Positions 9,141 through 51,294 of a stretch of 64,000 bases of DNA are shown in pieces (positions within the stretch are counted from its first letter, which is position 1; every line of letters starts with the position of its first letter). The position numbers were made by a program, and so were the translations under genes. The notes under the pieces are model-generated. The model made no database searches and was not told the DNA's origin. It saw only the letters and a program-made list of their open reading frames with translations. This stretch comes from an uncultured Bacilli bacterium (GTDB lineage Bacteria > Bacillota_I > Bacilli_A > ML615J-28 > CAG-698), in contig CAKOMG010000008.1 of NCBI GenBank assembly GCA_934096585.1, positions 34,690 to 98,689 of the forward strand, given 5' to 3'.

Positions 9141-9160
9141 AATTATCCTCATCCTCTTCT

Positions 9161-9882: not shown

Positions 9883-9924
9883 TCATAAAAGTAGACTATT
9901 GTATATAAAAATTTTAAATAAATA

Positions 9925-29332: not shown

Positions 29333-29944
29333 ATGAATAATGAACCAAAAACATATGGCTATGTTCGCGTTTCAACACTTACACAAAAAATAGATCGACA
29401 AATGAACGAACTATATAACCTTGGAATTGATAAAAAATACATTTATATTGATAAACAAAGTGGCAAAGATTTTAATCGCCCTAATTATCAGAAATTAAAA
29501 AAGAAATTAAAAAAAGATGATTTATTAATTATTAAATCAATTGATAGGTTAGGTCGTAACTATGAAATGATTATTGAAGAGTGGGCATGTATAACAAAAA
29601 TTATTAAAGCTAATATTTTTGTTATTGATTTTCCTTTACTAGATACTAGGAGTGAAACTAACTTAATTGGTAAGTTTGTAAGTGATATTTTTTTACAGGT
29701 ATTATCGTTTGTGGCGGAAAATGAAAGACAAAATATAAAACAAAGGCAAATGGAAGGCATCCGTATTGCTAAGCTTAAGGGTACACACATGGGACGCCCT
29801 AAAATAATACTTCCCGATAACTTTATTGATGCTGTTAACGAGATATCAAAAAATAATCAATCATATAAAGTGGGTGCAAAGCTAACAGGAATGAAAGATG
29901 GAACCTTTTATAAATATATGAAAATATATTTAGCAAACAATTAA
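29333..29944 (+). CDS. small serine recombinase (resolvase/invertase family)
   Basis: Catalytic N-terminus YGYVRVSTLTQKIDRQ, DRLGRN, a helix-E-like region and a C-terminal HTH. Strong SD AGGAGG. Confidence 0.9.
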   Translation: MNNEPKTYGYVRVSTLTQKIDRQMNELYNLGIDKKYIYIDKQSGKDFNRPNYQKLKKKLKKDDLLIIKSIDRLGRNYEMIIEEWACITKIIKANIFVIDFPLLDTRSETNLIGKFVSDIFLQVLSFVAENERQNIKQRQMEGIRIAKLKGTHMGRPKIILPDNFIDAVNEISKNNQSYKVGAKLTGMKDGTFYKYMKIYLANN

Positions 29945-32079: not shown

Positions 32080-32876
32080 AAGAAATGGATAAAGATGGTT
32101 TATTATTATGCCAAATGCAAGCAAATATATTTGTTATGTCTTTACAATATACTGAATCTAGTTCAGAAATATTTATTCGTAGATTTATGAATTCGAATAT
32201 AGCTAAAGAATTCGATTCATCTTCTATACTAAATGATTCCATTAATGAATTAGGTATTTTAAAATCTATTGAAAACGAATATGGAAAAACATCATATGGA
32301 AAGAAAAAGTATAGTGAAGATGCTTTATATTGGATTGGATATTTGTATCGCTATATGTCATATATTTATGATATATCTTCAAAACAAGCATACAAAATCA
32401 TAAAGGAAAAGGAATTAAATCTATTATTCTACTCTTATCATACTTTAGATTGTAAAAAAGCAATTGACTTAATACTTGAATCCAAAAATGTTAATTTGAA
32501 TGCTGATAATAGAAATAAAGTGCTTCTTGATTTAATTAAAAAACATTCATATGAAGAAAACATAAAATTAATAGCTAATTCTAATGTTCTTTTAATTGAA
32601 TACAAAGATGAAATCGTTGGAAAAGTGAATCTAAACAAACAAACTGATAGTATATATTTAACTGACATACAAACAAAAATTGAAAATAATCAATTCAAAC
32701 ATGTTTTAATCAATAAAATTTTTGAATATATTGATAATCAAGATATCATAAAACAATTAAATGTTAAAGTAAATAAAAATGATATCGATAGTATTAAACT
32801 ATATAAAAAAAATAAATTCTCATATTTTTATGAAACTGATGATTATTGTTATTACTATAGGAAAAAGGAGGCATAA
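32076..32876 (+). CDS. DUF3791-like N-terminal domain protein with a degenerate GNAT-like C-terminal half
   Basis: ATGA overlap with the upstream gene. The N-terminal ~110 aa are similar in pattern to the N-terminus of the 50656 ORF. The C-terminal LIEYKDEIVGKVNL...SIKLYKKNKF is GNAT-like but lacks a clear Q/RxxGxG/A motif. Confidence 0.5.
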   Translation: MKEMDKDGLLLCQMQANIFVMSLQYTESSSEIFIRRFMNSNIAKEFDSSSILNDSINELGILKSIENEYGKTSYGKKKYSEDALYWIGYLYRYMSYIYDISSKQAYKIIKEKELNLLFYSYHTLDCKKAIDLILESKNVNLNADNRNKVLLDLIKKHSYEENIKLIANSNVLLIEYKDEIVGKVNLNKQTDSIYLTDIQTKIENNQFKHVLINKIFEYIDNQDIIKQLNVKVNKNDIDSIKLYKKNKFSYFYETDDYCYYYRKKEA

Positions 32877-35048: not shown

Positions 35049-35544
35049 ATTTACCTCTTTTCTTATGTTGTAATATTAATAATATTATACAATAACTAAA
35101 ATATTTTTGCAAACATAAAAAATTTTGAGTTTCCATCTTTTTTTCTAAAACTATTAATAGTAATTATTTTTGATATAATTTTTACTATACAATTTAATAA
35201 AAATATGTATGTTTGTATAACATTTAAAACAATTTAATAGTGATTAATATTATTAAGTATATTTTTTTATATTTGCTACAGATTTTAAAAAATGGGAAAA
35301 CTTAAAGAAAAAAACTACTAGATAACTAGTAGCCCTTTTTATGCAACTTAATGCCGTGCTCACAAAATTAATTGTGATCTAGTAAAAACGGTCCCCCGCT
35401 ATACTACCTTCAATTCATAACACTATTATATCATACTATAAAATAAATAGCAAATTTTAAATGTTTATTTTTTGATTAATTTACCAATTATCAATTATTT
35501 AGTACTTAAATTTATACTTTTTTGATAAAAATACTTCTATTTTC

Positions 35545-35703
35545 TTATAAAGGTTTACCTTTATAAACGCATTTTATAGCAAGAAAATAACACTTGCTAT
35601 ACTAGGAGGAATCTATATGAGAAGACTTAGAATACAATACTCTATATTTATCATATTAGCATTTTTATCTATTATGAGTGTAGGTTTTGCTTCTTGGGTA
35701 ACA
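35545..35703 (+). repeat. 159-bp inverted repeat, left arm (5' UTR, SD and first 29 codons of the small cassette gene)
   Basis: Base-for-base identical, by my manual comparison, to the reverse complement of 45186-45344. Confidence 0.9.
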
Positions 35704-36231
35704 GCAAATGATAGTTCTTTTGAAATCAATGGCTCTATCATAGTTGATGATGTAAGAAGTAATAATGAATACTTAGAATGCGATGAAACACAAATTGAAG
35801 TATTTGAATTTTTTAAAACCGGATTCGTAAGTAACGATGGAGAGATAATAGATACAGGAGAAATTTATATTCCTTTTACAGTAAAAGTAAATAATTGTAG
35901 AGATGAATTTAAAAATAGTTCAAAGTTGGAAATTGTATTGAACTTTACAACAACCAATATGAATTTATTTGTTAATGATCCATTAAATATGAGTATAGTA
36001 TTAAAAAATAATAATGATGAAATTATTAAAACTATTGCTTCAACCAAAGATGGATTATTATCGTTTGAAATAAGTGGTTTACAGACTATTTCAAATAATA
36101 TAGATTATAAATTATATTATCAATTTACAAAAAATGAAATTGAAAAAACATTTAAAGATGATGTCTATCCAGAATTATTAAAAGATGGATTTACATTTCA
36201 GTTAAATGCTAAAATAACGGGAAGTGATTAA
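35617..36231 (+). CDS. cassette A small exported protein (TasA/CalY-like N-terminus, function unknown)
   Basis: AGGAGG SD. N-terminus MRRLRIQYSIFIILAFLSIMSVGFASWVTANDSSFEINGSIIVDD. Paralogous to the ORFs at 44670 and 45472. C-terminus AKITGSD. Confidence 0.8.
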   Translation: MRRLRIQYSIFIILAFLSIMSVGFASWVTANDSSFEINGSIIVDDVRSNNEYLECDETQIEVFEFFKTGFVSNDGEIIDTGEIYIPFTVKVNNCRDEFKNSSKLEIVLNFTTTNMNLFVNDPLNMSIVLKNNNDEIIKTIASTKDGLLSFEISGLQTISNNIDYKLYYQFTKNEIEKTFKDDVYPELLKDGFTFQLNAKITGSD

Positions 36232-36232
36232 T

Positions 36233-39200
36233 ATGAAAAATATCCGTCAAACAAGAATATTTTTAATTTCAATTTTAGTAATATCAATTGCAACTGTTAT
36301 AGGATTTTCTACATGGTTAATATCTGATAGTATTAATATAAAACCTAGTCCTGGAATAGATAAAGTAATAACTAGATATTTGTCAGGAAATGAAGGAACA
36401 TATGATGGAAATGTATTATTGCCATCAAGTGAAGCGATTGGTTTAGTTAATAATGGACGAAATACAGATTTACAATATAAGTATAAAAAAGCAAATTCAA
36501 CAGATGATTATATTAATTGTGAAGATAGTAATCAATCTGTAGGGCCAATTGATGCTGGAGATTATTTAATTGAAGTAACATATATAATTAATGAAACCGA
36601 ATCAGAAACAATTTCAAATATAAAGTTTACAATTAATCCTTTAGATATTGAAAATTGCGATGACATATTTATTGAATTCACGGAACATTCAGATAATAAA
36701 TTTATATATACTGGTAATGAAATCAGACCTGATGATTTACAAGTAAAGTATAAGCAAAGAATATTAGCGTTTGATAATGATTATACTGTGAATTATTTAA
36801 ATAATATAAATGTTAGTACTGAGGCTATAGTTCAAGTCATAGGACAAGGTAATTTTAAAGGAACTAAACAATTATATTTTGAAATTACTGATAAACCACA
36901 AATTATATATTTAAAAGCAATAAATGGAATTAATCAAACTGTAACATACAATGGAACACAACAAAAACCAGAAATAGTTGCTTATGCTGATGAAAACTAT
37001 ACACAAGTATTAGAAGATGTAACTTTAACGTATAATAATGTTCCTACTAATGCAAGAGAAACAGCATACATTGTCAGAGTTACAGCGTCAAAAGAAAATT
37101 ATGAAAGTACTTATATAGACATTTATCTAACAATTGAGCAAAAAGAGCTTGAATTAGAATGGCATAAATCAGAATACACATATACAGGATTATCTCAAGG
37201 GCCTGCATGTATAGCAACAAATTTAATAGATGGTGATAATTGTAATATTTTTTCAACAAAAGAGATAAATGCGGGAGATTATGTTGCTTCTATTATAAGC
37301 GTTAGTAATTCGAATTATAAATTACCGACAAATAATTTAACTTGCAATTTTATTATTAATAAAGCTAATTATAAATGCAAAACAATTGGTAAATTAAATT
37401 TTGATGGTGATTATTATATTGAAGGTAATCAATTAAACGTTAGTGGTTATGTATTAACAGATATTTTCGGAAATGAAATTAGTTGTGCTCAAGAAGCAGA
37501 CATATCGCAAACTAAGTTTACTGATGGAAATAGTGAAACTGTTAATGCTAATGTTAGTATTATATGTTCAGCCATAACTAAAGATTCTAATTACAATGAT
37601 TATATTACCTCTACATCAGTAGTTGTATATGCAGTAGCAACAATAGGAAGTAAATACTATGGTACTGTAGAAAGAGCATTAACAAACGCAGTAAGTGGAA
37701 ATGAAGTATATTTAATTCCTAATAGAAATCCTACTCTTAGAGAAAACGCTGAAGTTAAAAGTAATGTAACTCTATATTTAGTTTATCAAGCAGGTAAATT
37801 TTTAGATAATAGACAAAATTCTGTTGCGAATATTTTTGCTGAATCGCAAGAAACTAAATATTTGCAAAACACTTTAACAATTGAAAAAAGTATTGTTCTA
37901 ATTAATAATGGAACAATCAAAATAGATGGTATTACTGGAAATGCTGGTGCGATATATGCAGGACAAACATCTGGGTTTTATACACAAATAGTTATGAACG
38001 AATCATCTTCCATCAAAAATACTGGAGTAATTTACTGTTTAGGTTTTATTAAAGAATCATATAATGAAAATAATAGCATTATTTATATACAAAGTGGAAC
38101 GCTAACTGCCCCATTAGTTTTTTACGATTTTAAAGGTGGATCTGTATCAAACTATTTAAATGGGAAAAAAGTTTTTCCTATGAAAGTATTTGATATGCCT
38201 AATATTAGACCATTAATTAGAATAACTCAAGGGGCTAAATATGAAGCTATAACTGATATTTATATGAATAATAAACATTTTAATCAACAAGATTTATATG
38301 TTATAGGAACTTCTTCGGATAGTAATGCTCTATTAAAAATGACTTCTGGATATATAGATTTAAAATATAATACTACAGGAACCCCAACAATTAATTCAGG
38401 ATATCATGATTTTAATATATATGGAAATTGTGAGACTGGAAAATTAAAAGTCAACTTAGCTGGTACAGATGTAAGTACGGAAAATTTTTATTGCCCTATG
38501 TCATGGAAATTTAAAATCAAAATTTATAATAGCATGACAATAAAATCAAAATTTGAGTTTTTACCAGGATCATCTTTAATAATAAATAAAAATGCTACTT
38601 TGCAAATTGATAAAGATTGCTGTTTTTATCAATCATATAAAGATAAAGGTGGTCAAACTCCACTATATCCAAATATAAATAATGCAGCATTATTGAAAAT
38701 TAATGGAGTCTGTAAGATTAATGCTAATTTTTGTGGACGAATTGTTACTGAAGTATCTGGAGCTCAACTATACGTTTCAAATAACAATTTGACAGGAATT
38801 ACTGATGGAAGTGCTACAGCAAAATATGGCGGTTTTTCAGGTGATATGGTTTATGCCCAATGTGGAGATGTAACTTTAAATAATGCAACATTATATGCTT
38901 ATGGATGTTTTGAAAATAGCACAGATTTTTCACAAAAATTTAGTAGTAATGCGTATTATCTATCAAATGGCGATTATTGGAGCAATCAAGTATCAAGTGG
39001 TGAATTTAATGTTATTTACCACTATAAAGATTTAGATGGAAATGATCAATCTCAAACAATAACTTATAATATATTCTCTGGAATCACCCCTACTATACCT
39101 TTAATATCTGACCCTATTAGAAGATATTATAATTTTGATGGTTGGTTTACTGACGAATCTTACTCATATAGTTATGACACTATTAATGTTTCCGCAAATG

Positions 39201-40927
39201 GTACTTATAATATTTATGCAAAATATTCACCGATTGAATACACATTAATTTATGAGGATTTGAGTGATAATATTAAATTAGATAATGTTACATTTACTTA
39301 TGAAAATTATCAAAATATTATTATTGCAAATGAATTAATAGATGGAAAGACATTTATAGGATGGTATATTACTAAAGATTGGACTGATTCTGACATTGCT
39401 ATACCAGCAGGAAGCACAGGACAAGCAATTTTAAGATTAATTGAACAAATGTATAATAATAATATTAATGCCTTAACTTTATATGGAAAATATGATATTA
39501 TGCATAAAATTCAGTTTAATATCGGTTTAGAAGAATTTGATTTCGATGATGAATATGTTAGTGATGGTGGAACAATCTCTAAAATTAATGCTTATTCAAA
39601 TGCGTTAAGATCTCTTGAAAGCAATGATACTCAAAAAATGTACTTTGTTGAATGGATTGATAGTGATAATAATGTAATTACATCAAATACCATTATTACA
39701 AAAGATATGATTTTAAACGCGAAATTACAAACAAAAGCTCACACAATTACTTTCACTGGTGGTAATGAAGATGATATTCGTTATTCTAATACTACAGATT
39801 CATATATCATTCCTATCGAGGCTATTAAATCACCAACCGGTAGTAAAGATAAAGGTGATACTGAAGTAGAATATAATTTTGTTAATTGGCTTTGTGAAAA
39901 TGATGGAACAAATTACAATAAGGGTGACTCTATTGCTATAAATAGTAATTTAACATTCACAGCGAAATTTACAGAATCGACTTATTGCTATATATCAGCG
40001 AGCACTACTTCTGAAACTATCACAAAAATAACGATAGGCAATGAAGAAATATCTCAAAGCGGAGGATATTGGAAAGTATTACAAAATTCATCAATTACTG
40101 TAACAGTAACCCATAAGAATACAGGTAATGGATCTTCACAATCATTTAGTTATGATGATGGTTCAACGCATAACTTAACTGGTAATACTAATGGCGTTTA
40201 TAATTTTACTATAACTAAAAACACTGAAATTACTGCTTCTTCATCTGATGGATGTATAATAGAAGGAACTTTGATAACATTAGCAGATGGAACAAAGAAA
40301 AAAATTGAAGAACTACAATTTGGCGATTTATTGCTTACATGGGATTTCTTTACTGGAAGTTTCGATGTTAAACCTTTAATTGCATTAGAAAAAACAACTA
40401 GAAGAAATTTCGAAGTATTAAATATTTATTTAGATAATGGTTATAAAATCCAAGTCATAAGTGCACAATCTTTCTTCGATATGAACCTAAGAGAATACTT
40501 TGAAATTAATTTAACTAATTATGAAAGTGCAATAGGCAAACGCATTATGATTGTTGATGATGATAAGATTTCTTCTTCTAAGATTAGTACTATTCAAATA
40601 GAAGAGATTGAAACAGTAGCTTATGAATTAATTACAGCTGAAGATTTTAACTTTGTAGCAAATGATATTTTGACTATAGAACCATTTATATTCTGGGTTA
40701 ACACATTCAAAATTGATGAAAACTATCGATATAATATTGATCAATTTAACAAAGATGTAGAAAAATATGGATTATATGAATATGAAGAATGGTCAGATTA
40801 TTTAACAAAAGAAGAATTTGAAGCATTTAATGGAAAATACTTCAAAGTTGCTGTAGGTAAAGGATTAATTACAAAAGAATACATTTTAAAAGCTTTATCT
40901 ATTTATAAAAATAGTTATAAACATTAA
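36233..40927 (+). CDS. cassette A giant surface protein: N-terminal anchor, MBG-type repeats, beta-helix-like core, Listeria-Bacteroides repeats, C-terminal Hint domain
   Basis: Its ATG lies 1 nt after the small-gene stop (a GTG at 36224 is the alternative). TM plus IGFSTWLISD. MBG-like GPIDAGDYLIEVTY and YNGTQQKPEI. YYGTVERAL..NNGTIKIDG. GW repeats YYNFDGWFTDES, FIGWYITKDW and YNFVNWLCEN. Hint block A is G|CIIEGTLITLADGTKKKIEELQFGDLLLT. Confidence 0.85.
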   Translation: MKNIRQTRIFLISILVISIATVIGFSTWLISDSINIKPSPGIDKVITRYLSGNEGTYDGNVLLPSSEAIGLVNNGRNTDLQYKYKKANSTDDYINCEDSNQSVGPIDAGDYLIEVTYIINETESETISNIKFTINPLDIENCDDIFIEFTEHSDNKFIYTGNEIRPDDLQVKYKQRILAFDNDYTVNYLNNINVSTEAIVQVIGQGNFKGTKQLYFEITDKPQIIYLKAINGINQTVTYNGTQQKPEIVAYADENYTQVLEDVTLTYNNVPTNARETAYIVRVTASKENYESTYIDIYLTIEQKELELEWHKSEYTYTGLSQGPACIATNLIDGDNCNIFSTKEINAGDYVASIISVSNSNYKLPTNNLTCNFIINKANYKCKTIGKLNFDGDYYIEGNQLNVSGYVLTDIFGNEISCAQEADISQTKFTDGNSETVNANVSIICSAITKDSNYNDYITSTSVVVYAVATIGSKYYGTVERALTNAVSGNEVYLIPNRNPTLRENAEVKSNVTLYLVYQAGKFLDNRQNSVANIFAESQETKYLQNTLTIEKSIVLINNGTIKIDGITGNAGAIYAGQTSGFYTQIVMNESSSIKNTGVIYCLGFIKESYNENNSIIYIQSGTLTAPLVFYDFKGGSVSNYLNGKKVFPMKVFDMPNIRPLIRITQGAKYEAITDIYMNNKHFNQQDLYVIGTSSDSNALLKMTSGYIDLKYNTTGTPTINSGYHDFNIYGNCETGKLKVNLAGTDVSTENFYCPMSWKFKIKIYNSMTIKSKFEFLPGSSLIINKNATLQIDKDCCFYQSYKDKGGQTPLYPNINNAALLKINGVCKINANFCGRIVTEVSGAQLYVSNNNLTGITDGSATAKYGGFSGDMVYAQCGDVTLNNATLYAYGCFENSTDFSQKFSSNAYYLSNGDYWSNQVSSGEFNVIYHYKDLDGNDQSQTITYNIFSGITPTIPLISDPIRRYYNFDGWFTDESYSYSYDTINVSANGTYNIYAKYSPIEYTLIYEDLSDNIKLDNVTFTYENYQNIIIANELIDGKTFIGWYITKDWTDSDIAIPAGSTGQAILRLIEQMYNNNINALTLYGKYDIMHKIQFNIGLEEFDFDDEYVSDGGTISKINAYSNALRSLESNDTQKMYFVEWIDSDNNVITSNTIITKDMILNAKLQTKAHTITFTGGNEDDIRYSNTTDSYIIPIEAIKSPTGSKDKGDTEVEYNFVNWLCENDGTNYNKGDSIAINSNLTFTAKFTESTYCYISASTTSETITKITIGNEEISQSGGYWKVLQNSSITVTVTHKNTGNGSSQSFSYDDGSTHNLTGNTNGVYNFTITKNTEITASSSDGCIIEGTLITLADGTKKKIEELQFGDLLLTWDFFTGSFDVKPLIALEKTTRRNFEVLNIYLDNGYKIQVISAQSFFDMNLREYFEINLTNYESAIGKRIMIVDDDKISSSKISTIQIEEIETVAYELITAEDFNFVANDILTIEPFIFWVNTFKIDENYRYNIDQFNKDVEKYGLYEYEEWSDYLTKEEFEAFNGKYFKVAVGKGLITKEYILKALSIYKNSYKH

Positions 40928-40960
40928 AATTTCTTCTTATTAATTAATGTAAACACATTT

Positions 40961-40998
40961 AAAAAAGTACGATTTCGTAAATGAGTCGTACTTTTTTG
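40961..40998 (+). terminator. rho-independent terminator after giant A
   Basis: AGTACGA-13 nt loop-TCGTACT followed by T6. Confidence 0.65.
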
Positions 40999-41884
40999 TT
41001 ATTTGATTTAAAAGCAGTAGTTTCATAATAAAAGCAAGTTATTTTATATAACTTTTGCAAGTTTTATAAATATAATTTAATAATCGTTTTTATATAAAAT
41101 CTATAGCATTGTTTTTTTCTTTAAAAAAATAATAATAAAATTATTAAAAAATAAATTTGAAAATATATCATATAATTAAATAAAAAGTAAAGTAGATTTA
41201 ATAATTTTTATACCCACTATAAAAATTATAAAAAATTAAAAGGAAAAGTAGAAAAATAAAGTAAGCTAAAATTTTCAAAAAATCATAAACAATTAAAAAT
41301 TTAATCATTTTTATTAAAATTTATAAAAAACTAAAAATTGTCAAAAAGTAAGAATTAAAAGTATAATTTGCTTAAAAAAGAAAATGGAAAATAATGTCAA
41401 ATTATTATTTCGTATTTCCCCTTAAATTTTAGCCATAATCTACTTTTATTTTTTTTACTGCTCATTTTACATTGAACATTTTAACCAAATTATAACGCAA
41501 ATTTCCGTTTTTTGAAAATTCTTAAATTTTTCAATAAATAATCAAAAAATTGATAAAAATTTAAGAAAAATCAATGATATAGGGGTATGAATTAAAAAGT
41601 TGATAAATCATTAAAACGCGGAATTGATAAAGAATTGAAAAAGGGCGTTTTTTAACTAAAAATTTATTCTTTTTTATCAAATTAATAAAACCATATATTT
41701 GTTTAATAATTAAGTGAAAAATGAACATAAAAATATTGATAATTGCCTATTTTAAGCCATTTATTAAATCATATTTTTTATATAAATTTATGCTAACAAA
41801 AAGAATTTATATGAACAAAAATAATAAAGGCGCTTTTTTCAATTTAATGATAAAAACGCCTTTAAATTATCTGTTTTTTACTAT

Positions 41885-44668
41885 TTATTTTTTAATTTCA
41901 TTCTTTTCCAGCGTTATATCAGCATATTTAGGAATATAAATATCAACTGAAACGACCCTTAATACTTTTATAGATGTAGCAGTAAAACTATGAGCTTCCT
42001 TAGAAACAACAGATGAATTGGTAGCATTAATTGATCCACTAGATATAATATTAACAATTCCTCCAAATGATGTAGCAAAAATTTTACCACTACAATTTAA
42101 AATTGCATCATCTTTTTTTGGGTAAGGTTGACTACCTAAATCGCCTTGTTCTACTGTTGTTCCATTAGGATATAAAGATTCACTTTTATAAACAGCAATT
42201 TCTTTAGCATTAAGTGTTACACCTTCATTTATAGTTAGTGATGAACCAGGTAATAATTTAAAACTTTGAGATGATGTATTTACAGTTGCAGTATTACCAT
42301 TTTCATAACTGTTCAAATTAATAATAAAGTAAAAAGGAACAGGTAAGAACACATTTTTTGATGAGACATTGATTTTTACATGAGCCGTAATACCCCATTT
42401 ACTTTTTTTAATGGCAAAATATACATCAATGCTTCCAAGTTCCCATGAACCAAAGGTATTTATTGAACATTTTTGTTTCTCTGTATTGAAAAAGCCTGTT
42501 AAACTTGCACCATTACTTAATTTAATTAAGCCATCACTAGAAATAATTTTCATATCAGCAGCATTGTGCTCACCATCAGCAAATAAAGCTGCTTTGCCTA
42601 CTAGTTTTGCACCATAATCAAATTTGAAATTAACATTTATAAAGCCATCTAAATACCATCTATTAAAAACATAACATACAGGTTTACCTTCACCTGTGGT
42701 TTTTCCACTCATACTTACGGAACTATTAACAACACTTTCAACTTCACTTTTATCTTTGCCTGCCATACCTGCAAATCTTGAACCGCCCCTATGTTCTACA
42801 ATTACATAAGGCATATTAACTATTGCTGTCGAACTATTTATTATAGATATATCATTTGAATTGTTTCCAGATATATAACCATAACAATTAATTGTTGAAT
42901 TATTGATTATTTTTGAAGAATTTAATAATTGAATTTCTGTATACTCTTGAGTTGCATTTCCATTTAGTAATTTTCCACCGCCTCCACTATTTTGGACAGC
43001 CCCTATTGTTAAAGTGCCATTATTAGTTAATGTTGAATTATTTATTATTTGAATAAATTGTTTTCTGTTGTCTGTTTTTGTATAGGCTATACTTGTTGAA
43101 TCATTTACATAACTGTGACTAGTAGTTCCACTGTATGGTAAACATAGTTCAACATTACTCTTTATCGTACAAGATTCTCTGATATAAGGGTTTCTATCAA
43201 TAATACAATAAATCACTCCTGAAGAAACAGAAGATAAAGCTAACTCTATTCTACTATAATATGTTGATCCATTATAACATACTGCTTTAACAGTTGTTGA
43301 AACCTTTATAACTAAAGAATTATAGTTTTGTGAATAAGAAGTAGGAATAAATGTTAATTCAATATCTGTAGCCTGAAGTGTTTCACTACTTCCTGATATA
43401 TTATATTGTGTTGTATCATATGACCATGTTCCGATAATTGTTCCATCATTTCCTACACCATTTACAGTTCCTTTGTTAGCACCATCAATTTCTGCTTGAT
43501 AACTACCAACAAATTCTTTTAATTTAGGTTCAGTTTCAAGTGTTAAATTAGCTTTATTTATAGTAAATGTTTTATTTTCTTTTACACAATCATAATTACT
43601 AGAACTGTTCCCTTTTAATCCAGTAATACTAAGTTTATATAAACCTGCATTTACATATCCACTTAGTATATCTGTTTGAAGCGATACATCATCGCCATCA
43701 TACACTGAGCCTTCTTTGATGGATGCAGATGGTGTATAAGCATAATCATGACCTTGATACACTGCATCACTTGGTATATTCCATTCAATATCTAACATTT
43801 TTTTATTTATTTGTAGATTAAATGAAGTTTCTGCTTTTTTAAATCCTTCCATAGTAACAGAAATTGTAACTTTATAAGAACCAGCATTAACTGCAAAATT
43901 ATCAATTAAGTCTATTCCAGCGGTTTGTGGTTGAAATTTATAATTAATATTGCTTTTGTCAATAGCTATGCTTTCGCCATTACTAGTAAAAGTAATGTCT
44001 TCAACTGGCACTATGAATTTTTCTTTATCATATATTTTTTCATAATTAGTTTTTGATAATGTAATTACTAAATCTGAAACAATAGTAAATTGTTCAGATA
44101 AAGTGCCTATATAATTACCCTGCCCAGCAAGAGTCATAGTAGCAATACCCCGATTAGTATTATTTAAATAACTGATTGTATAATCATTAGAAGTAAGAGT
44201 TAATACTTCATTATCTTCTATATCTACAGTAACACTTTCTATTTCTGGTTCCACTGCTGTACCAATATATGATAATTCATATTCTTTGAGTATTAGTAAG
44301 CCATTGCTGATGTCTCTTCTTTGAATAGTATGATTAAATTCAACAAATATATCACTAGAAGTAGTGTCAATTACTTTAACAATATATTCACCCGCATTTA
44401 TTGGCGCTCCATCAGTGTAGTCTTCAGAACTTGATTTATTCTTGTGCATTATTTTGCAATCAATTAAATTGTTCTTTTTTATGGCTTCTTTACCACTATA
44501 AATGCTTGTTTCTGTTTTTAAATAATAATTAACAACATCTTCAAAACTATATGTTGGTGTACTGTCAACGCTTGTTGTTATAAACCATGTTGCTAATCCA
44601 ATTAATGTTATTAATGGTAATAATAATATTAACATTAATGATGTAATAGATAAATTCTTTTTTTTCAT
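41885..44668 (-). CDS. cassette B giant surface protein (N-terminal anchor, MBG-type repeats, beta-helix-like core; no GW repeats, no Hint)
   Basis: ATG at 44668 (MKKKNL), 1 nt after the small-gene stop. IGLATWFITTS, INAGEYIVKV, YIGTAVEPEIESV, NAGSYKVTISV, TYYSRIELAL..NNGTLTIGAVQNSGGGG. Confidence 0.85.
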   Translation of the reverse strand: MKKKNLSITSLMLILLLPLITLIGLATWFITTSVDSTPTYSFEDVVNYYLKTETSIYSGKEAIKKNNLIDCKIMHKNKSSSEDYTDGAPINAGEYIVKVIDTTSSDIFVEFNHTIQRRDISNGLLILKEYELSYIGTAVEPEIESVTVDIEDNEVLTLTSNDYTISYLNNTNRGIATMTLAGQGNYIGTLSEQFTIVSDLVITLSKTNYEKIYDKEKFIVPVEDITFTSNGESIAIDKSNINYKFQPQTAGIDLIDNFAVNAGSYKVTISVTMEGFKKAETSFNLQINKKMLDIEWNIPSDAVYQGHDYAYTPSASIKEGSVYDGDDVSLQTDILSGYVNAGLYKLSITGLKGNSSSNYDCVKENKTFTINKANLTLETEPKLKEFVGSYQAEIDGANKGTVNGVGNDGTIIGTWSYDTTQYNISGSSETLQATDIELTFIPTSYSQNYNSLVIKVSTTVKAVCYNGSTYYSRIELALSSVSSGVIYCIIDRNPYIRESCTIKSNVELCLPYSGTTSHSYVNDSTSIAYTKTDNRKQFIQIINNSTLTNNGTLTIGAVQNSGGGGKLLNGNATQEYTEIQLLNSSKIINNSTINCYGYISGNNSNDISIINSSTAIVNMPYVIVEHRGGSRFAGMAGKDKSEVESVVNSSVSMSGKTTGEGKPVCYVFNRWYLDGFINVNFKFDYGAKLVGKAALFADGEHNAADMKIISSDGLIKLSNGASLTGFFNTEKQKCSINTFGSWELGSIDVYFAIKKSKWGITAHVKINVSSKNVFLPVPFYFIINLNSYENGNTATVNTSSQSFKLLPGSSLTINEGVTLNAKEIAVYKSESLYPNGTTVEQGDLGSQPYPKKDDAILNCSGKIFATSFGGIVNIISSGSINATNSSVVSKEAHSFTATSIKVLRVVSVDIYIPKYADITLEKNEIKK

Positions 44669-44669
44669 C

Positions 44670-45272
44670 TTATTCACCATTACCTGTTATTTTTGCACTA
44701 TATGTAAATTTACTATTCTTTAAACTATTATAAATAGTTGCAAAACTATCTAAATTATTTGTTATAGTAAATGATATAGTGATAGTTTTAGTATCTTGTG
44801 CTAAATCTTTAATTTCTATTTTTGATATACATTCATTCCCATTCACTGCTATATCATTACTTATTAATGAATCATCAGACACTTTAATTGTTACTGGAAG
44901 ATTTGTTGGATCATTAAAGAAGTTAAAACTATTATCACTATAAGTTGTTGTAAAGTATAAATTTAAAGATGTAGCATCTTTAAATGTTTCTTTACATTTT
45001 TTTATATCTATTGTAAGTTCTATACTCATAGTTCCTGTTTGACTGATACTTCCTTCATTTGTTACAAAACCTGTTTTATAGAATTTTAGTTTTGTTGGAG
45101 AAACATTTGTAATATATTCATTACTTTCAATGACATCATCTACTTGAATTGATCCTTCAATTGAAGATATTGGTGAATCAGTTGTTGTTACCCAAGAAGC
45201 AAAACCTACACTCATAATAGATAAAAATGCTAATATGATAAATATAGAGTATTGTATTCTAAGTCTTCTCAT
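44670..45272 (-). CDS. cassette B small exported protein
   Basis: The first 29 codons are identical to cassette A, and it diverges after that. C-terminus AKITGNGE. Confidence 0.8.
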   Translation of the reverse strand: MRRLRIQYSIFIILAFLSIMSVGFASWVTTTDSPISSIEGSIQVDDVIESNEYITNVSPTKLKFYKTGFVTNEGSISQTGTMSIELTIDIKKCKETFKDATSLNLYFTTTYSDNSFNFFNDPTNLPVTIKVSDDSLISNDIAVNGNECISKIEIKDLAQDTKTITISFTITNNLDSFATIYNSLKNSKFTYSAKITGNGE

Positions 45273-45344
45273 ATAGATTCCTCCTAGTATAGCAAGTGTT
45301 ATTTTCTTGCTATAAAATGCGTTTATAAAGGTAAACCTTTATAA
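45186..45344 (-). repeat. 159-bp inverted repeat, right arm
   Basis: See 35545-35703. Confidence 0.9.
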
Positions 45345-45396
45345 ATAGGGAAAATGAAAAAATCTTTCAAACGTTTTCACTTTTTTTCATAGAAGT

Positions 45397-45425
45397 TTGC
45401 ATTTTTTTACACTATATGTTATAAT
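45397..45425 (+). promoter_or_regulatory. promoter candidate for cassette C
   Basis: TTGCAT, 17-nt spacer, TG-n-TATAAT (extended -10), 47 nt upstream of the ATG at 45472. Confidence 0.55.
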
Positions 45426-45471
45426 ATATATATAGTTTATAAAGGTTTGGGTTAGTGAAAGGAGGGTTTAA

Positions 45472-46080
45472 ATGAAAAGATTAAGAACTCAATATTTTGT
45501 TCTTACTATATTAGCAGCACTATCTATAGTTAGCGTTGGTTTTGCTTCTTGGGTAACTGCTAATGACACTACCTTTTCTTTTAACGGTTCTATTGTTGTA
45601 GATGATATACAAGATAATAATAACTATATAACTTGTAATAACTTAAAGATATTTAAATATTTCAAAACAGGTTTTGTTGATGAAAACAACAAAATTGTTA
45701 ATAATGGTTCTATTTCTTTTGATTTAGTTATAAACAATAAAAATTGTAAAGCTAAATTCACTGATTCAACAGATCTTGAAATTAGTTTACAGTTAGAATC
45801 TAATAATTTAAATTTATTCCATAGTGATATTATATCTATGGAAGTAAAAAAAGATAATGAAACTCAAAACCCATTATTCAGTTTTGATCAAACCCTTTGT
45901 GTATTACCTATTACAATAACAAACTTTAAACAAGAGAAAGATACAATAACATTAAAAATCGAATATTTATTCACTATTACTAATTTAGATGAATTTAGTA
46001 ATACAGTTTATCCAATATTACTAACTAATGATTTTAATTTTGTATTAAGTGCAAAATTAACAGGAAGTGTAGGTGAGTAG
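45472..46080 (+). CDS. cassette C small exported protein
   Basis: GGAGGG SD. MKRLRTQYFVLTILAALSIVSVGFASWVTANDTTFSFNGSIVVDD. C-terminus AKLTGSVGE. Confidence 0.8.
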   Translation: MKRLRTQYFVLTILAALSIVSVGFASWVTANDTTFSFNGSIVVDDIQDNNNYITCNNLKIFKYFKTGFVDENNKIVNNGSISFDLVINNKNCKAKFTDSTDLEISLQLESNNLNLFHSDIISMEVKKDNETQNPLFSFDQTLCVLPITITNFKQEKDTITLKIEYLFTITNLDEFSNTVYPILLTNDFNFVLSAKLTGSVGE

Positions 46081-46082
46081 TA

Positions 46083-49000
46083 TTGATTGAATTTAAGAAA
46101 ATCAAAGTATTTTTGATTATGGTTCTAATAATACCAATACTTGTACTAATTGGTTTTAGTACCTGGATAATAACTAATAAATTAATTATTAAACCAGATA
46201 TCGAAGTAAATAAGGTATTAACAGAATATCTAAACTCACAAGAAGGAACATACAATGGAAATGTCCTTCTACCAAATAGTAAAGTAATAGGTATTGTTAA
46301 TAATGGTAGAAACACTGAATTAACATATTATTATAAGCAAAATACAGATGATAATTATATTGAGTGTGTTGATAGTAATACTTCAATTGGTCCTATTAAT
46401 GCCGGTGAATATTTAATTAAGGTAAAATATATAGTTAATGATACTATTTATACAATAGATAATATTGCTTTTAAAATTAATAAAGCAATCTATGATATGA
46501 GTAATATTACCTTTAATAATACTAGTAAAGTATATAATCGTGAGAATCAAATTATAGAATGTAATGGAACTCTGCCAAAAGGTGTAACTGTGACATATAC
46601 AGGTTTTGGAAAAAATGTTGGAGAATATCCTATTACAGCTTCATTTTCAGGTGATACTAGAAACTATGAAGCTATACCTGATAAAACAGCTACATTAACT
46701 ATTACTCCAAAAGATATAAGTGAATGTAGAATATACTTTAGTAATGTTGATATAACAACGGAAAATAATGGCTTTATCTTTTTAAGTGAAAGAACACTTA
46801 GTTATATTCAATCTGGTTTAACTATAAAAGATAATGAAGATATATTAAATGAATCTAGTGAGTATACAATTGATTGGAACAATTGTGGAGTACTTCCTGG
46901 TAGTACTAATACAGCAAACATTAGTGGTACAGGTAACTATACTGGTACATCTACTATAACTTACAAAATAGAACAACCAGAATTAATTGTTGTTGCCTCA
47001 TTAGAAGGCCAAATTGATTCAGCAACATACGATGGAAATATACATTATCCAAGTGTAAAAGTTATAACTAAATATAGTTCTACACCTTTAACTGATTATA
47101 CATTATCATATGATATGGAACCTATTAATGCTGGTCAATATAACGTTAAAGTAACAGCATCAAAATCTGGATATTTAGATGGATCTAGTTCAGTTTCAAT
47201 TGTTATTTATCCAGCAAGCATTAAAGATGCTGTAGTTAATGTTAGTTCACATTCTGATAATCCTAATTTCTTTGTTTATAATAATGGTAATGAAATTAGA
47301 CCATCAGTAGAATCGGTAGTTTTAAATGGAAAAACATTAACAGTTAATACTGAATATAATGTATCTAGTTATTCAAGCAATAGAAATGCATGTACAAATG
47401 CTGCAATAGTTACTGTTAAAGGAACAGGTAACTATACAGGTGAAGCTTCAGGATCATTTTCAATTCTAAAAGCAACTCCTATTGTTACTCTTCCAACATT
47501 CATAAAAAATACTATAATTGAAGGTGAAAAGCCAACTATTAAGTCACAAGGAGTAGCTAAACATAATAATGTAAATGTTAGCGGAACTTTCACTTCTTCA
47601 AACATTAATAATATTACATTTACTGTAGGAACAAATCCTACTAGTGAATTTGGTATTAATTATTCATTTATACCGAGTGATACAAATAATTATAACACTA
47701 TTAGTGATGCTGGTAGTGTAACTGTTACAGTATATGGTGTTGGATATAATAGTTCTAATAAAAACTATTATGGTACTATAGAAAAAGGGTTAAGTGCTGC
47801 TGCTTCTGGTCAAACTTTATGGGTAGTAACAAAGATATATGAAAATAGTGGTTTTTATCCAACTATTAAATCAAATTGTGCAGTAGGTAGTGGAATTACT
47901 TTAGCACTTACATATAAAGATGGTGATTATTCGACTGGATATAAAATATATAATAATGGTGATTCTTATGTATCAAATCCTGATGGAAATGCTATTGGAG
48001 CATGCTTGAAAGTAAACAACACTGCTACTATTACAATTAATGGTACACTTCTTGTGGGTGGTTATATGGATGTTAATTCAATTACTCAAGCAAGAGCTTC
48101 TTTAATGAATAATGGGATTATTAATTTTGAAAGCGGAAGTATTGTCAAAGCATATGGAAATATTAAAGGGATTGGAAATATCTACGCAAAAAGTGGTTCT
48201 ACTATTTATGATGCCTTTAGAATTTATGACTTCCCTGGAGCAAGATATGCAGCCGGTATGTATTATAAAACTAAGAAACCTCTAGCAAGTGATACTTATA
48301 ATAATATTATGCCATTTAATTGCTATTCACTACATAATATTTCCTGTCCTATTAATATTTATTATAATTGCAATTATTTTGCAAGATATCAATTAAATGT
48401 TTCAAATACTATCTATGCAGATGATATTAAAATGTTTGGTTCTAATGGCTTTTTCAATCTTACAACTGATAATGAAGGTTCATTAGACAAAGGATACATC
48501 AGAAGAACCATTGAAGATACTACAAAAAGCACAAATATAAATTCCTCTTTTTCAACTTCTAATCAAGATCTTACTCAAAGAGAGGTATATGAAATTTATT
48601 CAAACATTATAGACAATGAAATACATGTTTCTTTAAAAATTTTAACTGTATCAGTAAATATTAATACTTCTACTGACTTGGCTATGCCAATTGGATTGAT
48701 GAAGTTAATTATTAAGAATGGATATACTGTCACTTTTTCAAAAAACTCATATAAATTCTTACCTGGTTCTTTGTTACAAATTGATGAGGGAGGCAAATTG
48801 CTTCTTAATAATGCAACGAATACTATTTTTTATGATGAATATTATGATAATTTTACTTCAACAAACCAAGGTGGAACCTCTACTAATCATGCTTCTTTTT
48901 CATATCATATACAACATAAAGCTCTATATAATGTTAGTAATGATATTTACACAGTAAAAGAAAATTATATTTCAAAAATAATTGTAAATGGTACCTTAGA

Positions 49001-50600
49001 AGTTCAAGGTGGATTTGGTGGTCTTATTGAAACAAATTCAACAAATGGTAAAATTATTTTTAATTCAAATAACGCAACAATTAATAGATTAATAAGCATC
49101 AAAGAATTAGCTAACTCTGAAGTTTTGAATATAAATCATGGAGTTGTATATCAAGACACTCAATATTCAAGACTTAAAATGTACAATGGCGAAAGCATTA
49201 ATAGTGGTTATAGTACTGTTGCTGCTGGAACATATTATTCTATTCAAGATAATTATGGTAATTATGGATGGCGTACAGATAAATTAAATATTAGTTATGA
49301 TTTAAATGGAGGATCTGGCATTACTCCTGATCCTATTCTAAACATACCTGTTTCAACGGGAGGTTATACTATTCAATCTACAGACATACCATCTGATGTT
49401 TTCACTAGAGAGTATTATGAATTTATTGGTTGGGCTCTTGATGGTCATGGAAATTCTATGATCATTCCAAATGAAACAATTATTTATGCAAGTTCTGTAT
49501 TTTATGCAATATGGAATCCTATCCCATACTCTATTACATATCATAACGTTTATTATAATAATTGTGGAAGTGGAGACAATTTAGATATTAATCCGAACCC
49601 AAGTGAATTAACTATAGAAAGTGCTTTTAATTTGGGCAATCCAACAAATGGAAATTACTTATTTGATGGTTGGTATACTGATCCATCTTGTAATAGCGAG
49701 TATCGTATTACTAGTATTCAAAACATGCATAATGATTTAATCTTATATGCTCATTGGTTCCCAGAAGGAACTAAAACAATTACTATTAAGTATAATATTA
49801 ATGTACATTCAGATGTTACTGATTTAATTCCTGATATGCCCGATGAAACAATTCCTCTTGTCAATAATCAAACGTCTTGGCAACCTATGGACCTTAAAGC
49901 AATAGCTAACAATAATAACACAATACAATATTACTTTGAAGGATGGTATTTTGAAGATGGTACTGATTATAGTCCAGAAGAATTATCAAGTAGAATTCAA
50001 GAAGATAATACTATTACTACAGTAACATTAAAAATATATGTTAAAGCTAAACTTAAAGTAACATATGTGGATGTTGAAGGCTTTGAGTACATTAGTAAAC
50101 CTGATGATTATTATATTATTCCAGGATCCACAATTACTTTAGCAAGTGGTTCTGCTCAAACTATCACAGATGATGCAAAAGGAGAAAAAAAGATTTATAC
50201 TTTTTCAACATATTCAATTACTGGAATGACAGGACAATTTGATCTTGGATCTTCTGTTCAAATCAATAGTGCTACTGATAATATAGTTACTATAAAACCT
50301 ATTTTAACAACAAAATCATTATATAAAATTAGCTATTCAGATAGTAAAAAAATTGTAAGCAGTATAACTTATGATGGTACTAATGTAACTGATGGTATGT
50401 ATGTTGAAATAGGCAAAGTGTTAATCGTAAAACTTAAAAATGTAGGAAAAACAGATACTGCTAATTCTTTAACTATAACAAACGGCAGCATCCTTGAAGC
50501 AACATTTACTCAAGCGAAAACATGGTTTGGATCTGGTAACCCTAAAGAATTCACTTATACATGGTCATCCTTTAAGGGCACTTTGATTATTTCAAGTTAA
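46083..50600 (+). CDS. cassette C giant surface protein (N-terminal anchor, MBG-type repeats, beta-helix-like core, Listeria-Bacteroides repeats)
   Basis: TTG start 2 nt after the small-gene stop, with an AGGTGAG SD. IGFSTWIITN, INAGEYLIKVKY, INAGQYNVKVTAS, NYYGTIEKGL. GW repeats YYEFIGWALDGHG, YLFDGWYTDPSCNSEY and YYFEGWYFEDGTDY. Confidence 0.85.
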   Translation: MIEFKKIKVFLIMVLIIPILVLIGFSTWIITNKLIIKPDIEVNKVLTEYLNSQEGTYNGNVLLPNSKVIGIVNNGRNTELTYYYKQNTDDNYIECVDSNTSIGPINAGEYLIKVKYIVNDTIYTIDNIAFKINKAIYDMSNITFNNTSKVYNRENQIIECNGTLPKGVTVTYTGFGKNVGEYPITASFSGDTRNYEAIPDKTATLTITPKDISECRIYFSNVDITTENNGFIFLSERTLSYIQSGLTIKDNEDILNESSEYTIDWNNCGVLPGSTNTANISGTGNYTGTSTITYKIEQPELIVVASLEGQIDSATYDGNIHYPSVKVITKYSSTPLTDYTLSYDMEPINAGQYNVKVTASKSGYLDGSSSVSIVIYPASIKDAVVNVSSHSDNPNFFVYNNGNEIRPSVESVVLNGKTLTVNTEYNVSSYSSNRNACTNAAIVTVKGTGNYTGEASGSFSILKATPIVTLPTFIKNTIIEGEKPTIKSQGVAKHNNVNVSGTFTSSNINNITFTVGTNPTSEFGINYSFIPSDTNNYNTISDAGSVTVTVYGVGYNSSNKNYYGTIEKGLSAAASGQTLWVVTKIYENSGFYPTIKSNCAVGSGITLALTYKDGDYSTGYKIYNNGDSYVSNPDGNAIGACLKVNNTATITINGTLLVGGYMDVNSITQARASLMNNGIINFESGSIVKAYGNIKGIGNIYAKSGSTIYDAFRIYDFPGARYAAGMYYKTKKPLASDTYNNIMPFNCYSLHNISCPINIYYNCNYFARYQLNVSNTIYADDIKMFGSNGFFNLTTDNEGSLDKGYIRRTIEDTTKSTNINSSFSTSNQDLTQREVYEIYSNIIDNEIHVSLKILTVSVNINTSTDLAMPIGLMKLIIKNGYTVTFSKNSYKFLPGSLLQIDEGGKLLLNNATNTIFYDEYYDNFTSTNQGGTSTNHASFSYHIQHKALYNVSNDIYTVKENYISKIIVNGTLEVQGGFGGLIETNSTNGKIIFNSNNATINRLISIKELANSEVLNINHGVVYQDTQYSRLKMYNGESINSGYSTVAAGTYYSIQDNYGNYGWRTDKLNISYDLNGGSGITPDPILNIPVSTGGYTIQSTDIPSDVFTREYYEFIGWALDGHGNSMIIPNETIIYASSVFYAIWNPIPYSITYHNVYYNNCGSGDNLDINPNPSELTIESAFNLGNPTNGNYLFDGWYTDPSCNSEYRITSIQNMHNDLILYAHWFPEGTKTITIKYNINVHSDVTDLIPDMPDETIPLVNNQTSWQPMDLKAIANNNNTIQYYFEGWYFEDGTDYSPEELSSRIQEDNTITTVTLKIYVKAKLKVTYVDVEGFEYISKPDDYYIIPGSTITLASGSAQTITDDAKGEKKIYTFSTYSITGMTGQFDLGSSVQINSATDNIVTIKPILTTKSLYKISYSDSKKIVSSITYDGTNVTDGMYVEIGKVLIVKLKNVGKTDTANSLTITNGSILEATFTQAKTWFGSGNPKEFTYTWSSFKGTLIISS

Positions 50601-50655: not shown

Positions 50656-51294
50656 TTATTCCTCTAATAAATCCTCTATCCTACATCCTAATACTTTAGA
50701 TAATCTAAATAATATATCTACTTGTGCTTTATTTATATCATTCTTCCTTTGTTCATACATTTGAATATTTCGAATTGATACTTCTGCTGCTTTTGCTAAT
50801 TCACTTTGAGATAAACCCGCAATACTTCTAAATTTTTTTAAATTCGTTACTTCCACTTTTTTATTTACATATTCATCTGCAACACTATAAAACTTTGTTA
50901 TATCAGCTTCATGTAATGGGTTATATAAACCAATTATTTTATCAACCGGAAATCTTTTATTGATAGTTTCAAATGATATACATTTATAGTTTTGATAATA
51001 TGCAAGTACATAACCTGTCCAGTAATATTTATTGCGATCAAAAAAAGGTTTAATGTTTTTTAACTTTTCTCTTTCTTTAGATTCTTCAATAATTATATAC
51101 AATAACTCTTCTGCTGATAAACCAACTAAATACTTAGGATTACCTCTTTCTATTTCTTTTGCAACTTTTGAACAAACAAATCTATTCCAAAAATTAATTA
51201 TATCTATTCCACAATTATTAACATATGTTAACATTGTGCCTAAGTTATCAGCAACACTTTCAACGTATAGCTCATTATAAGATCTAATTGACAT
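50656..51294 (-). CDS. DUF3791-like domain protein with a C-terminal XRE-type HTH
   Basis: I prefer the ATG at 51294 (MSIRSY), 5 nt after GAGGTGG, which overlaps the upstream gene by 11 nt. C-terminal HTH LKKFRSIAGLSQSELAKAAEVSIRNIQMYEQRKNDINKAQVDILFRLSKVLGCRIEDLL. Confidence 0.7.
   Translation of the reverse strand: MSIRSYNELYVESVADNLGTMLTYVNNCGIDIINFWNRFVCSKVAKEIERGNPKYLVGLSAEELLYIIIEESKEREKLKNIKPFFDRNKYYWTGYVLAYYQNYKCISFETINKRFPVDKIIGLYNPLHEADITKFYSVADEYVNKKVEVTNLKKFRSIAGLSQSELAKAAEVSIRNIQMYEQRKNDINKAQVDILFRLSKVLGCRIEDLLEE

Follow-up and report, generated by a model that had tools for sequence, protein, structure and literature searches.

We analysed a 64-kb stretch of DNA from an uncultured bacterium of the Bacilli (assembly GCA_934096585.1, contig CAKOMG010000008.1, positions 34,690–98,689; hereafter the window), which holds three two-gene cassettes, A, B and C, each pairing a small with a large predicted surface protein. 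Cassettes A and B converge on a non-coding spacer, cassette C (45472–50600, plus strand) diverges from cassette B, and the short interval between B and C carries a predicted promoter (Table 1). A 22-bp site, or a partly degenerate form of it, stands before each cassette, and we present the evidence that the locus is probably a multiple-inversion phase-variation system in which the promoter is joined to one cassette or another.

Relatives of the locus were found as contigs (L labels) by looking up the encoders of small cassette proteins (P labels) in sources including Logan and ENA, and all comparisons below rest on consensus contigs, not on reads. Beside the window's species (species 1) a sister species (species 2) was defined, its elongation factor P (EF-P) being 93% identical.

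Cassettes, arms and 22-bp sites

Small and large cassette proteins alike begin with a hydrophobic helix followed by the motif (I/V)GF(A/S)(S/T)W, and are presumably exposed at the cell surface. No Pfam or NCBIfam family was found for the small proteins or for ten distant relatives of them; a profile search gathered 620 representatives of the small-protein family at E ≤ 0.001, and public data contain few such proteins (17 clusters at 90% identity). The AlphaFold2 (AF2) model of A1 has a predicted local distance difference test (pLDDT) value of 80.7 and shows the membrane helix and beta-sandwich, for which a Foldseek search of the PDB returned only generic beta-sandwich or jelly-roll matches (template-modelling scores, TM, of 0.3–0.35), and no function was assigned. 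Some relatives carry the small and large open reading frames (ORFs) fused into one (L029, 5166–9815, 1549 aa; P0145, 1538 aa, which matches the small-protein profile at its N-terminus), suggesting that the two proteins act together. The spacer between A2 and B2 (spacer X, ~950 bp, 22% GC) holds no ORF and belongs to no Rfam family; it contains repeated TTGATAAA motifs and is 69–83% conserved in L001, L028 and L015.

Table 1. Features of the cassette locus and the linked recombinase gene, in window coordinates.
Feature	Position	Strand	Description
Small serine recombinase, candidate invertase	29333..29944	+	203 aa; PF00239, E 1.8e-24, residues 8–151
Site A	35545..35566	+	Perfect palindrome, core TT at 35555–35556
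Arm A	35545..35712	+	Site, 5' UTR with hairpin and AGGAGG, first 29–32 codons of A1
A1, small protein	35617..36231	+	204 aa; N-terminal membrane helix and beta-sandwich domain
A2, large protein	36233..40927	+	About 1564 aa; Listeria-Bacteroides repeat
Spacer X	40928..41884	.	AT-rich, non-coding, between convergent A2 and B2
B2, large protein	41885..44668	-	927 aa
B1, small protein	44670..45272	-	200 aa
Arm B	45177..45344	-	Inverted copy of arm A
Site B	45323..45344	-	Same perfect palindrome, opposite polarity; plus-strand core AA at 45333–45334
P, invertible promoter segment	45345..45436	+	92 bp, between sites B and C; points at cassette C in the window
Site C	45437..45458	+	Inner half and core TTATAAAGGT-TT; degenerate outer half GGGTTAGTGA
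C1, small protein	45472..46080	+	202 aa
C2, large protein	46083..50600	+	1505 aa; Listeria-Bacteroides repeats

The outer ends of cassettes A and B are bracketed by an inverted repeat. An earlier sequence-only reading of the window had reported it as 159 bp long, and this was borne out both by a base-by-base comparison, in which 35545–35703 and 45186–45344 are exact reverse complements with mismatches first met at 35704 and 35708, and by a repeat search, which gave arms of 168 nt (35545–35712 and 45177–45344, 99% complementary, two mismatches). Similarity stops outward of 35545 and of 45344, and the repeat is evidently too long and too exact for chance. Each arm consists, in order, of a 22-bp palindrome, a 50-nt 5' untranslated region (UTR) with an AGGAGG Shine-Dalgarno (SD) sequence, and codons 1–29 of A1 or B1 (start codons at 35617 and 45272), which matches the content ascribed to the repeat in that reading; its description of the coding sequence downstream as only distantly related also holds, A1 and B1 being 47% identical in protein sequence beyond the arms. 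The two-arm layout recurs in contigs of other samples, each assembled separately (L002/L006/L009/L017 (scaffold_158) and two further similar places), and since independent assemblies agree, we reject assembly collapse as the source of the arm identity, a danger that the sequence-only reading had itself raised.

The perfection of the repeat differs between strains. Over 18 kb, L002 and the window share 99.93% identity, yet the leader of the A arm in L002 differs and is 11 nt shorter; the short A-type leader is found on the A arm in L001, L002, L003 and L005, and a B-type leader on A in the window and L004. The perfect identity of the window's arms therefore appears to be strain-specific, the mark of a recent, non-reciprocal gene-conversion patch. 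L015 has its own inverted repeat (158 nt, 97%) of the same anatomy with a different UTR sequence, and its arms seem to have been homogenised independently, as in concerted evolution. N-terminal modules and bodies are mosaic across strains, as in P0004 and P0006, which join an arm-type N-terminus to a C-type body, and in P0013. The UTR patch and these mosaics support the earlier proposal that recombination or gene conversion keeps the arms alike, and the long arms are best described as the shared 5' module of the full-site cassettes, made up of the site, a leader with a hairpin before the SD, and a signal peptide.

This hairpin lies directly 5' of the SD in every leader allele of a full-site cassette (35567–35616 and 45273–45322 in the window, and L001, L002, L015, L028 and L030), and its stems vary (UAUAGCAAG/CUUGCUAUA, AUAGCA/UGCUAU, UAGUAUA/UAUACUA, UGUAG/CUACA), which suggests an RNA structure conserved by compensatory change. 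The sister species is without it.

The palindrome at the outer edge of each arm is perfect, TTATAAAGGT-TT-ACCTTTATAA, with 10-bp half-sites around an asymmetric 2-bp core. In the window the left flank (flankL) is marked by the sequence …CTTCTATTTTC, and the B body by …ACAACAACTGATTCACC. The 12-mer TTATAAAGGTTT, one half-site plus the core, occurs four times in the window against 0.07 copies expected by chance, at 35545 (+), 45333 (-), 45437 (+, before C) and 43300 (-, inside B2); it had been picked out beforehand as part of a palindrome at the arm edge that recurs before cassette C, and has turned out to be the key motif of the locus. At least three sites are present per locus (A, B and C in the window; S1, S2 and S3 in L015; a far site, a half-site and a full site in L029), and in every locus examined the polarity of the cores permits inversion between the pairs of sites that we invoke.

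Several further sequences resemble the site. The exact copy at 43300–43311 (-), in mid-coding sequence of B2 (codon ~457), has the polarity of site B; the L015 homologue lacks it, and it may be a chance occurrence or a cryptic intragenic recombination site. A degenerate palindrome at 42170–42191, also inside B2, has four mismatches and a TC core and is probably due to chance, and a likeness of 41848–41870 to the flankL site of L001 lies in DNA too AT-rich to be trusted. We ruled out a role of the palindrome as a terminator, as no T-run follows it. A scan of GTDB genomes with the 22-bp site found it in one metagenome-assembled genome (MAG) only, GCA_964516425.1, which belongs to the sister species, and two matches in a scan of JGI metagenomes had no cassette or UTR nearby and look like chance.

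Inversion of the promoter segment and the point of exchange

A consensus scan of 45260–45480 gave a single promoter-like match, TTGCAT-17-TGtTATAAT, with its -35 element at 45397–45402 and an extended -10 element ending at 45425, inside the 92-bp segment P; no comparable plus-strand promoter was found by the scan next to site A. Both hexamers are kept in L015 and in species 2. The sequence-only reading had instead placed fixed promoters outside the arms, and these are weak: TTGATA-18-TATAAA has no T at position 6 of the -10 element, and the other candidate has a 21-nt spacer. The strong promoter sits just outside the segment delimited in that reading, in 45345–45436, and is itself invertible.

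Both orientations of the promoter were found among very close relatives. In species 1, contigs L028 and L029 have identical flanks around 116 bp (9841–9956, repeats included) that are 100% identical as the reverse complement. In the sister species, six contigs with an identical P0005 gene divide three against three by promoter orientation (L022/L025/L027 and L023/L024/L026), the difference being an exact reverse complement of a 97-bp inner segment bounded by the 16-bp inverted repeat TTTTATAAATGTAAAC, with only 2–7 single-nucleotide polymorphisms in the flanks over 11.7–18.6 kb. The promoter points toward the full-palindrome cassette in L015, L033 and L036, and toward the half-site cassette in the window, L001, L002, L007–L013, L028 and L039. 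The segment thus has the make-up of an inverton, a predicted promoter on 92 bp between 12–13-bp inverted repeats, and occurs both ways round in natural populations (L028/L029; L022–L027; L033/L036 against the window type). Comparison of related genomes, which the sequence-only reading had called for, accordingly revealed inversion of the promoter segment, and the inverted form of the 9.8-kb segment, which it had in mind, in none of them.

A perfect 22-bp palindrome lying over a -10-like TATAAA before every cassette looks like an operator, and helix-turn-helix (HTH) genes flank the locus, so that the palindrome might bind a dimeric transcription factor co-regulating all cassettes, with the differences in orientation being assembly artefacts at short repeats. 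We hold this to be highly improbable: more than one assembler and study recovered the two orientations (Logan, ENA), the junctions are clean and the segment between them is reverse-complemented exactly, and in species 2 the differing inner half-sites swap sides, as a physical inversion predicts.

The flips also locate the exchange. In species 1 the repeat consists of the core and the inner half-site, and the outer halves differ (ACCTTTATAA against GGGTTAGTGA), so that exchange must have taken place no farther out than the core. The two sites of species 2 have in common their outer halves, the core and 2 bp more, and it is the differing inner halves, ACCTTTATAA and ACTTAAATAA, that swap sides, so exchange there can have been no farther in than the core plus 2 bp. 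Homology between L001 and the window's flankL runs through TTATAAAGGT-TT and ends exactly there. In L030 the junction before the P0006 cassette is a hybrid that changes at the core, from the type of the L029 far site, which in L029 lies downstream of the neighbouring cassette, on the left to the full-site type on the right. As read from the contigs, these intervals overlap only at the central 2 bp, which is where the crossover is placed; the 2-bp interval is reached by combining the species 1 flip with either the L001 or the L030 junction, and across the flips of the two species the interval is ≤4 bp. Breakpoints in natural variants therefore agree with a site of the hix/gix type, with inverted half-sites around an asymmetric 2-bp core. 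Exchange at a central dinucleotide fits a serine recombinase, which makes a 2-bp stagger, and not the 6–8-bp overlap of tyrosine recombinases, and repeats of 13–16 bp are too short for RecA.

These breakpoints bear on the mechanism that the arms themselves bring to mind, in which RecA-type recombination between the 159–168-bp repeats would invert the 9.8 kb and swap the cassette bodies behind two fixed, unequal promoters, the palindrome being only a promoter or operator element. The arm repeat is indeed long and perfect, and the UTR conversion patch, the mosaic P0004, P0006 and P0013 and the homogenised arms of L015 indicate that homologous recombination acts on it. However, the breakpoints fall at the 2-bp site core and none was seen inside the arms or, as in sap-type exchange, within long conserved 5' regions; two-cassette relatives invert with a 13–16-bp repeat; the strong promoter rides on the invertible 92-bp segment and not in a fixed flank; and the arms of L002 are broken by an 11-nt indel. 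We regard an arm-driven switch as distinctly unlikely, and of the two routes that had been proposed for the inversion, RecA or a site-specific enzyme, the second fits better. Homologous recombination in the arms could also yield inversions, but as 13–16-bp repeats suffice for flips in two-cassette relatives, the long repeat would not be the recombination substrate that defines the system.

Cassette relocation, the candidate recombinase and the proposed mechanism

Whole cassettes also change place at the sites. The P0006 cassette is 100% identical over 713–723 bp in eight contigs from different samples; in five of the eight it stands in tandem behind the large gene and terminator of another cassette, and in three directly behind the promoter segment, with the promoter facing it. 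It is at the outer edge of the site that these two contexts part, as would follow from inversion between the full site and the far site. In the window cassette A borders flankL; in L001, where its copy is 99.2% identical, it borders the right flank (flankR) and the promoter segment, and a half-consensus site is left at flankL. L015 has the complementary arrangement, with three sites and arms pointing outward, such that an inversion would carry the promoter to the third cassette. With at least three sites, relocation as expected of a multi-cassette system is seen for P0006 and for cassette A.

Three contigs with the P0006 cassette behind the promoter (L033, L036 and L037) all end 50–60 bp into the large gene, which hints at another repeat or branch point, in the conserved N-terminal region of the large gene, that breaks assemblies. 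Contigs from the P0013 and P0011 look-ups start at or near the site and added little context.

As sites A and B are perfect and inverted, an A × B inversion of the 9.8-kb segment (9,778 bp core to core) is likely in the window, and presumably occurs in its strain. It might be held instead that only the 92-bp promoter segment flips, that the 9.8 kb is static, with arms that are gene-converted 5' modules, and that the arrangements of the strains are rare evolutionary rearrangements. All contigs found with both A and B share one orientation, with A at flankL, B by the promoter segment and the promoter toward C, and L001 differs from the window by more than an inversion: it lacks the B cassette, its spacer X shows only 83% identity, and its A2 has a different C-terminus. 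Set against this, the promoter flip uses the very site that A and B reproduce perfectly and in inverted polarity, the DNA-identical P0006 cassette is found in two contexts joined at the site, and L015 offers the complementary three-site topology, and we consider a static segment unlikely.

The enzyme is most likely encoded at 29333–29944. The 203-aa product has a serine-recombinase catalytic domain with the conserved motifs; its best solved relatives are Sin/Bin3 (4e-28), followed by the gamma-delta and Tn3 resolvases and then by Gin (2e-14), and its top NCBIfam match, below threshold, is the Mpi family. In the alignment with Sin (2r0q) YGYVRVSTLTQ pairs with IGYARVSSLDQ, SIDRLGRN is identical, and no catalytic motif is disrupted. 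The 64-kb window yielded no other recombinase. Identity to the sister-species protein is 73–74%, against 39% for the neighbouring M48 peptidase and 62–63% for the Flg_new protein, and in both species the recombinase gene adjoins efp near the cassette locus, 5.6 kb from the sites in the window and 3.5 kb in species 2. This gene had already been noticed in the sequence-only reading, and conserved linkage together with the crossover geometry makes it the best candidate.

Tyrosine recombinases serve most of the multi-cassette inversion systems characterised in low-GC bacteria that lack a cell wall (vpma, vsp, vsa; PMC2268961), and the serine recombinase gene is not directly beside the sites, so it might be unrelated, for example a mobile-element remnant, with a tyrosine recombinase of the Xer, Rci or FimB type encoded elsewhere. 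Yet the overlap shared by partner sites is only 2–4 bp at the dyad centre, less than the 6–8 bp such enzymes need, and we rejected a tyrosine-recombinase core on this ground; the half-sites abut a 2-bp spacer, no tyrosine recombinase was found in the 64-kb window, and the linkage and 73–74% identity of the serine recombinase have been kept between species amid neighbours at 39–63%. A tyrosine enzyme has, in our view, little chance of being the one at work.

The reading we favour, at a probability of roughly 0.7, is of a shufflon-like phase-variation system in which multiple inversions govern the two-gene surface-protein cassettes. Every cassette, coding for a ~200-aa and a 900–1600-aa protein, would be preceded by a 22-bp site whose TT/AA core sets its polarity, and one sigma-70-type promoter would serve the three alternative cassettes. 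Recombination between sites B and C would flip the 92-bp promoter segment (114 bp core to core) and redirect transcription from C to B, and recombination between A and B would invert the 9.8-kb segment and place cassette A next to the promoter. Strand exchange would take place at the central dinucleotide through the Sin-like serine recombinase encoded 5.6 kb to the left, and RecA-type recombination in the arms may add to the exchange. In the state captured by the window cassettes A and B are presumably silent. An expression switch by inversion had been foreseen in the sequence-only reading; the switch stands, but a 9.8-kb inversion through the arms, with fixed outer promoters, is an unlikely mechanism for it.

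A number of observations weigh against this system or against parts of it. The recombinase gene is 5.6 kb off, with housekeeping genes (efp) in between, and is assigned by linkage and crossover geometry only; its closest solved relatives are resolvases (Sin) and not the Hin/Gin invertases, and beyond a GRPK hinge its last 62 aa give no Pfam HTH match even at E ≤ 1. The 114-bp loop is very short for a serine-recombinase synapse, and the core of the far site in L029 is AT, not TT/AA. Weak promoters are possible from the site's own TATAAA with an upstream TTGATA (in flankL of the window, and upstream of S3 in L015), so cassette A may not be silent. The orientation differences lie between samples and might be fixed differences between extremely close strains, and the inverted 9.8-kb isomer was in no contig found.

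A bolder version, in which the Sin-like recombinase runs a true shufflon, one perfect 22-bp palindrome, its polarity given by the central TT/AA alone, inverting both the 114-bp promoter module and 5–10-kb cassette blocks and so dealing one promoter among at least three operons, we advance tentatively, at a little under even odds. If it is true, the 114-bp module would be among the shortest segments proposed for a serine invertase and would need strong DNA bending, a mechanistic question for serine-recombinase synapsis, and in this uncultured gut lineage of low GC content the operons would encode an uncharacterised protein family of at least 620 representatives, for which Pfam has no model. Control by phase variation would mark this unannotated cassette-protein family as surface-exposed and under host or phage selection. 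A locus of this kind will break or be mis-oriented in metagenome assemblies, and its orientation should be scored from reads.

The lineage is nearly absent from genome collections, with one MAG among 185,579 GTDB species representatives, and a GTDB genome scan with A1/B1/C1 peptide patterns confirmed nothing. The only genome-collection relative (L014/L016, in contig CAZFAM010000006.1 of GCA_964516425.1) is labelled 'uncultured Bacteroidales bacterium'; the strong AGGAGG sites in its DNA, its promoters of the TTGACA/TATAAT type and the GC content of ~25% in the related window are atypical for Bacteroidales, and we find the label doubtful. Megablast of 35000–46000 against a plasmid collection gave no match, and the locus is therefore taken to be chromosomal. 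A search of the window against Rfam found only a tRNA, and in the A flank and spacer X nothing but a sub-threshold miRNA match, treated as chance.

Other features of the window deserve mention. Between the M48 peptidase gene and site A lies a candidate small RNA, 35300–35453 (-). TTGCTA-17-TGnTATAAT at 35453 to 35425 resembles a promoter, the body is rich in GC within a spacer rich in AT, a 14-bp hairpin and T-run at 35339 to 35308 form the terminator, and the fold z-score is -4.7; the candidate has no Rfam match and is conserved in L001 (16270–16400). HTH and DUF3990 genes stand on both sides of the locus, fused at 31225–32876 (284 aa) and separate at 50656–51937 (215 and 217 aa). DUF3990 is related to ADP-ribosyltransferases, these genes are absent from the sister species' locus, and they may be inserted toxin-antitoxin-like or mobile modules. 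A second surface-protein cluster consists of three paralogous genes for proteins of ~200 aa (8559–9152, 9161–9760 and 13480–14082, minus strand) with lipoprotein-like N-termini (…LSGC…) and no Pfam family, which bracket a 1165-aa BspA-type leucine-rich-repeat protein (9963–13460). A Fic/DOC gene at 4303–5350 (-) is split into overlapping ORFs, with Fic_N in 4988–5350 and the Fic domain in 4303–5013, and may be a frameshifted pseudogene or a sequencing error.

Comparison with known systems

Serine invertases drive the flagellar phase variation of Salmonella and the inversion of the tail-fibre G and C segments of phages Mu and P1. The locus resembles Hin/hix, Gin/gix, Cin and Pin in having a small serine recombinase and a dyad site with an asymmetric 2-bp core that sets polarity (see also the review PMC11868660). 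As with hixL and hixR, the inverted repeat is one half-site plus the core and the other half-sites differ, and, as in the Mu G segment, the 9.8-kb segment holds a pair of convergent two-gene cassettes that would take turns behind an expression signal lying outside it. Unlike in the Hin/Gin systems, the recombinase is nearer to Sin/Bin3 (4e-28) than to Gin (2e-14) and is encoded away from the DNA that inverts, the site measures 22 bp with 10 bp to each half, the promoter segment that flips has only 92 bp against roughly 1–4 kb, and at least three sites per locus allow alternative inversions.

In its logic the locus is like vpma/Xer1 of Mycoplasma agalactiae, vsp of Mycoplasma bovis and vsa/HvsR of Mycoplasma pulmonis, in which alternative surface genes have in common a conserved module of 5' UTR and signal peptide, every 5' UTR holds a recombination site, site-specific inversions connect a single promoter with different cassettes, and the recombinase gene is linked (PMC2268961). 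Those systems use tyrosine recombinases, whereas a serine recombinase is indicated here by the geometry of the crossover and by the linked gene, so that the locus works like the systems of Xer1, HvsR and Rci without being an enzymatic member of their group. Here the promoter also sits on a tiny, separately invertible segment between divergent cassettes, and each cassette is a two-gene operon in place of a single lipoprotein gene.

Short promoter segments within inverted repeats, found in both orientations in nature, are likewise known from gut invertons, the Mpi-controlled capsule promoters of Bacteroides fragilis and the mpl promoters of Mycoplasma penetrans (PMC2268961; PMC11602134; PMC10403206), and Mpi is also a serine recombinase. 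Gut invertons mostly turn one operon on or off, whereas the segment described here would toggle between two divergent cassettes, with inversion of cassettes through the same sites; the site sequence is unrelated, and the lineage is SD-using and 25% GC. In the sap S-layer locus of Campylobacter fetus a single promoter likewise lies on an invertible element between opposed cassettes with a conserved 5' region, and larger inversions bring in others, but recombination there is mainly RecA-dependent within conserved regions of about 600 bp, against 13–16-bp repeats and 2-bp core breakpoints here. The Rci/sfx shufflon of R64 also yields alternative products by multiple inversions among at least three sites (the term is defined in PMC11868660); Rci, however, is a tyrosine recombinase, and it swaps C-terminal coding segments of one gene, not promoter-cassette junctions.

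The kind of phase variation is thus already known, and what is new is the lineage and the combination of a promoter toggle between divergent operons with cassette inversion at the same sites. For an uncultured lineage of the human gut it provides a defined site, a predicted crossover point, a candidate enzyme and the genes under the switch, and the locus would extend the single-promoter, many-cassette logic of the mycoplasmas, with their tyrosine recombinases, to a serine recombinase.

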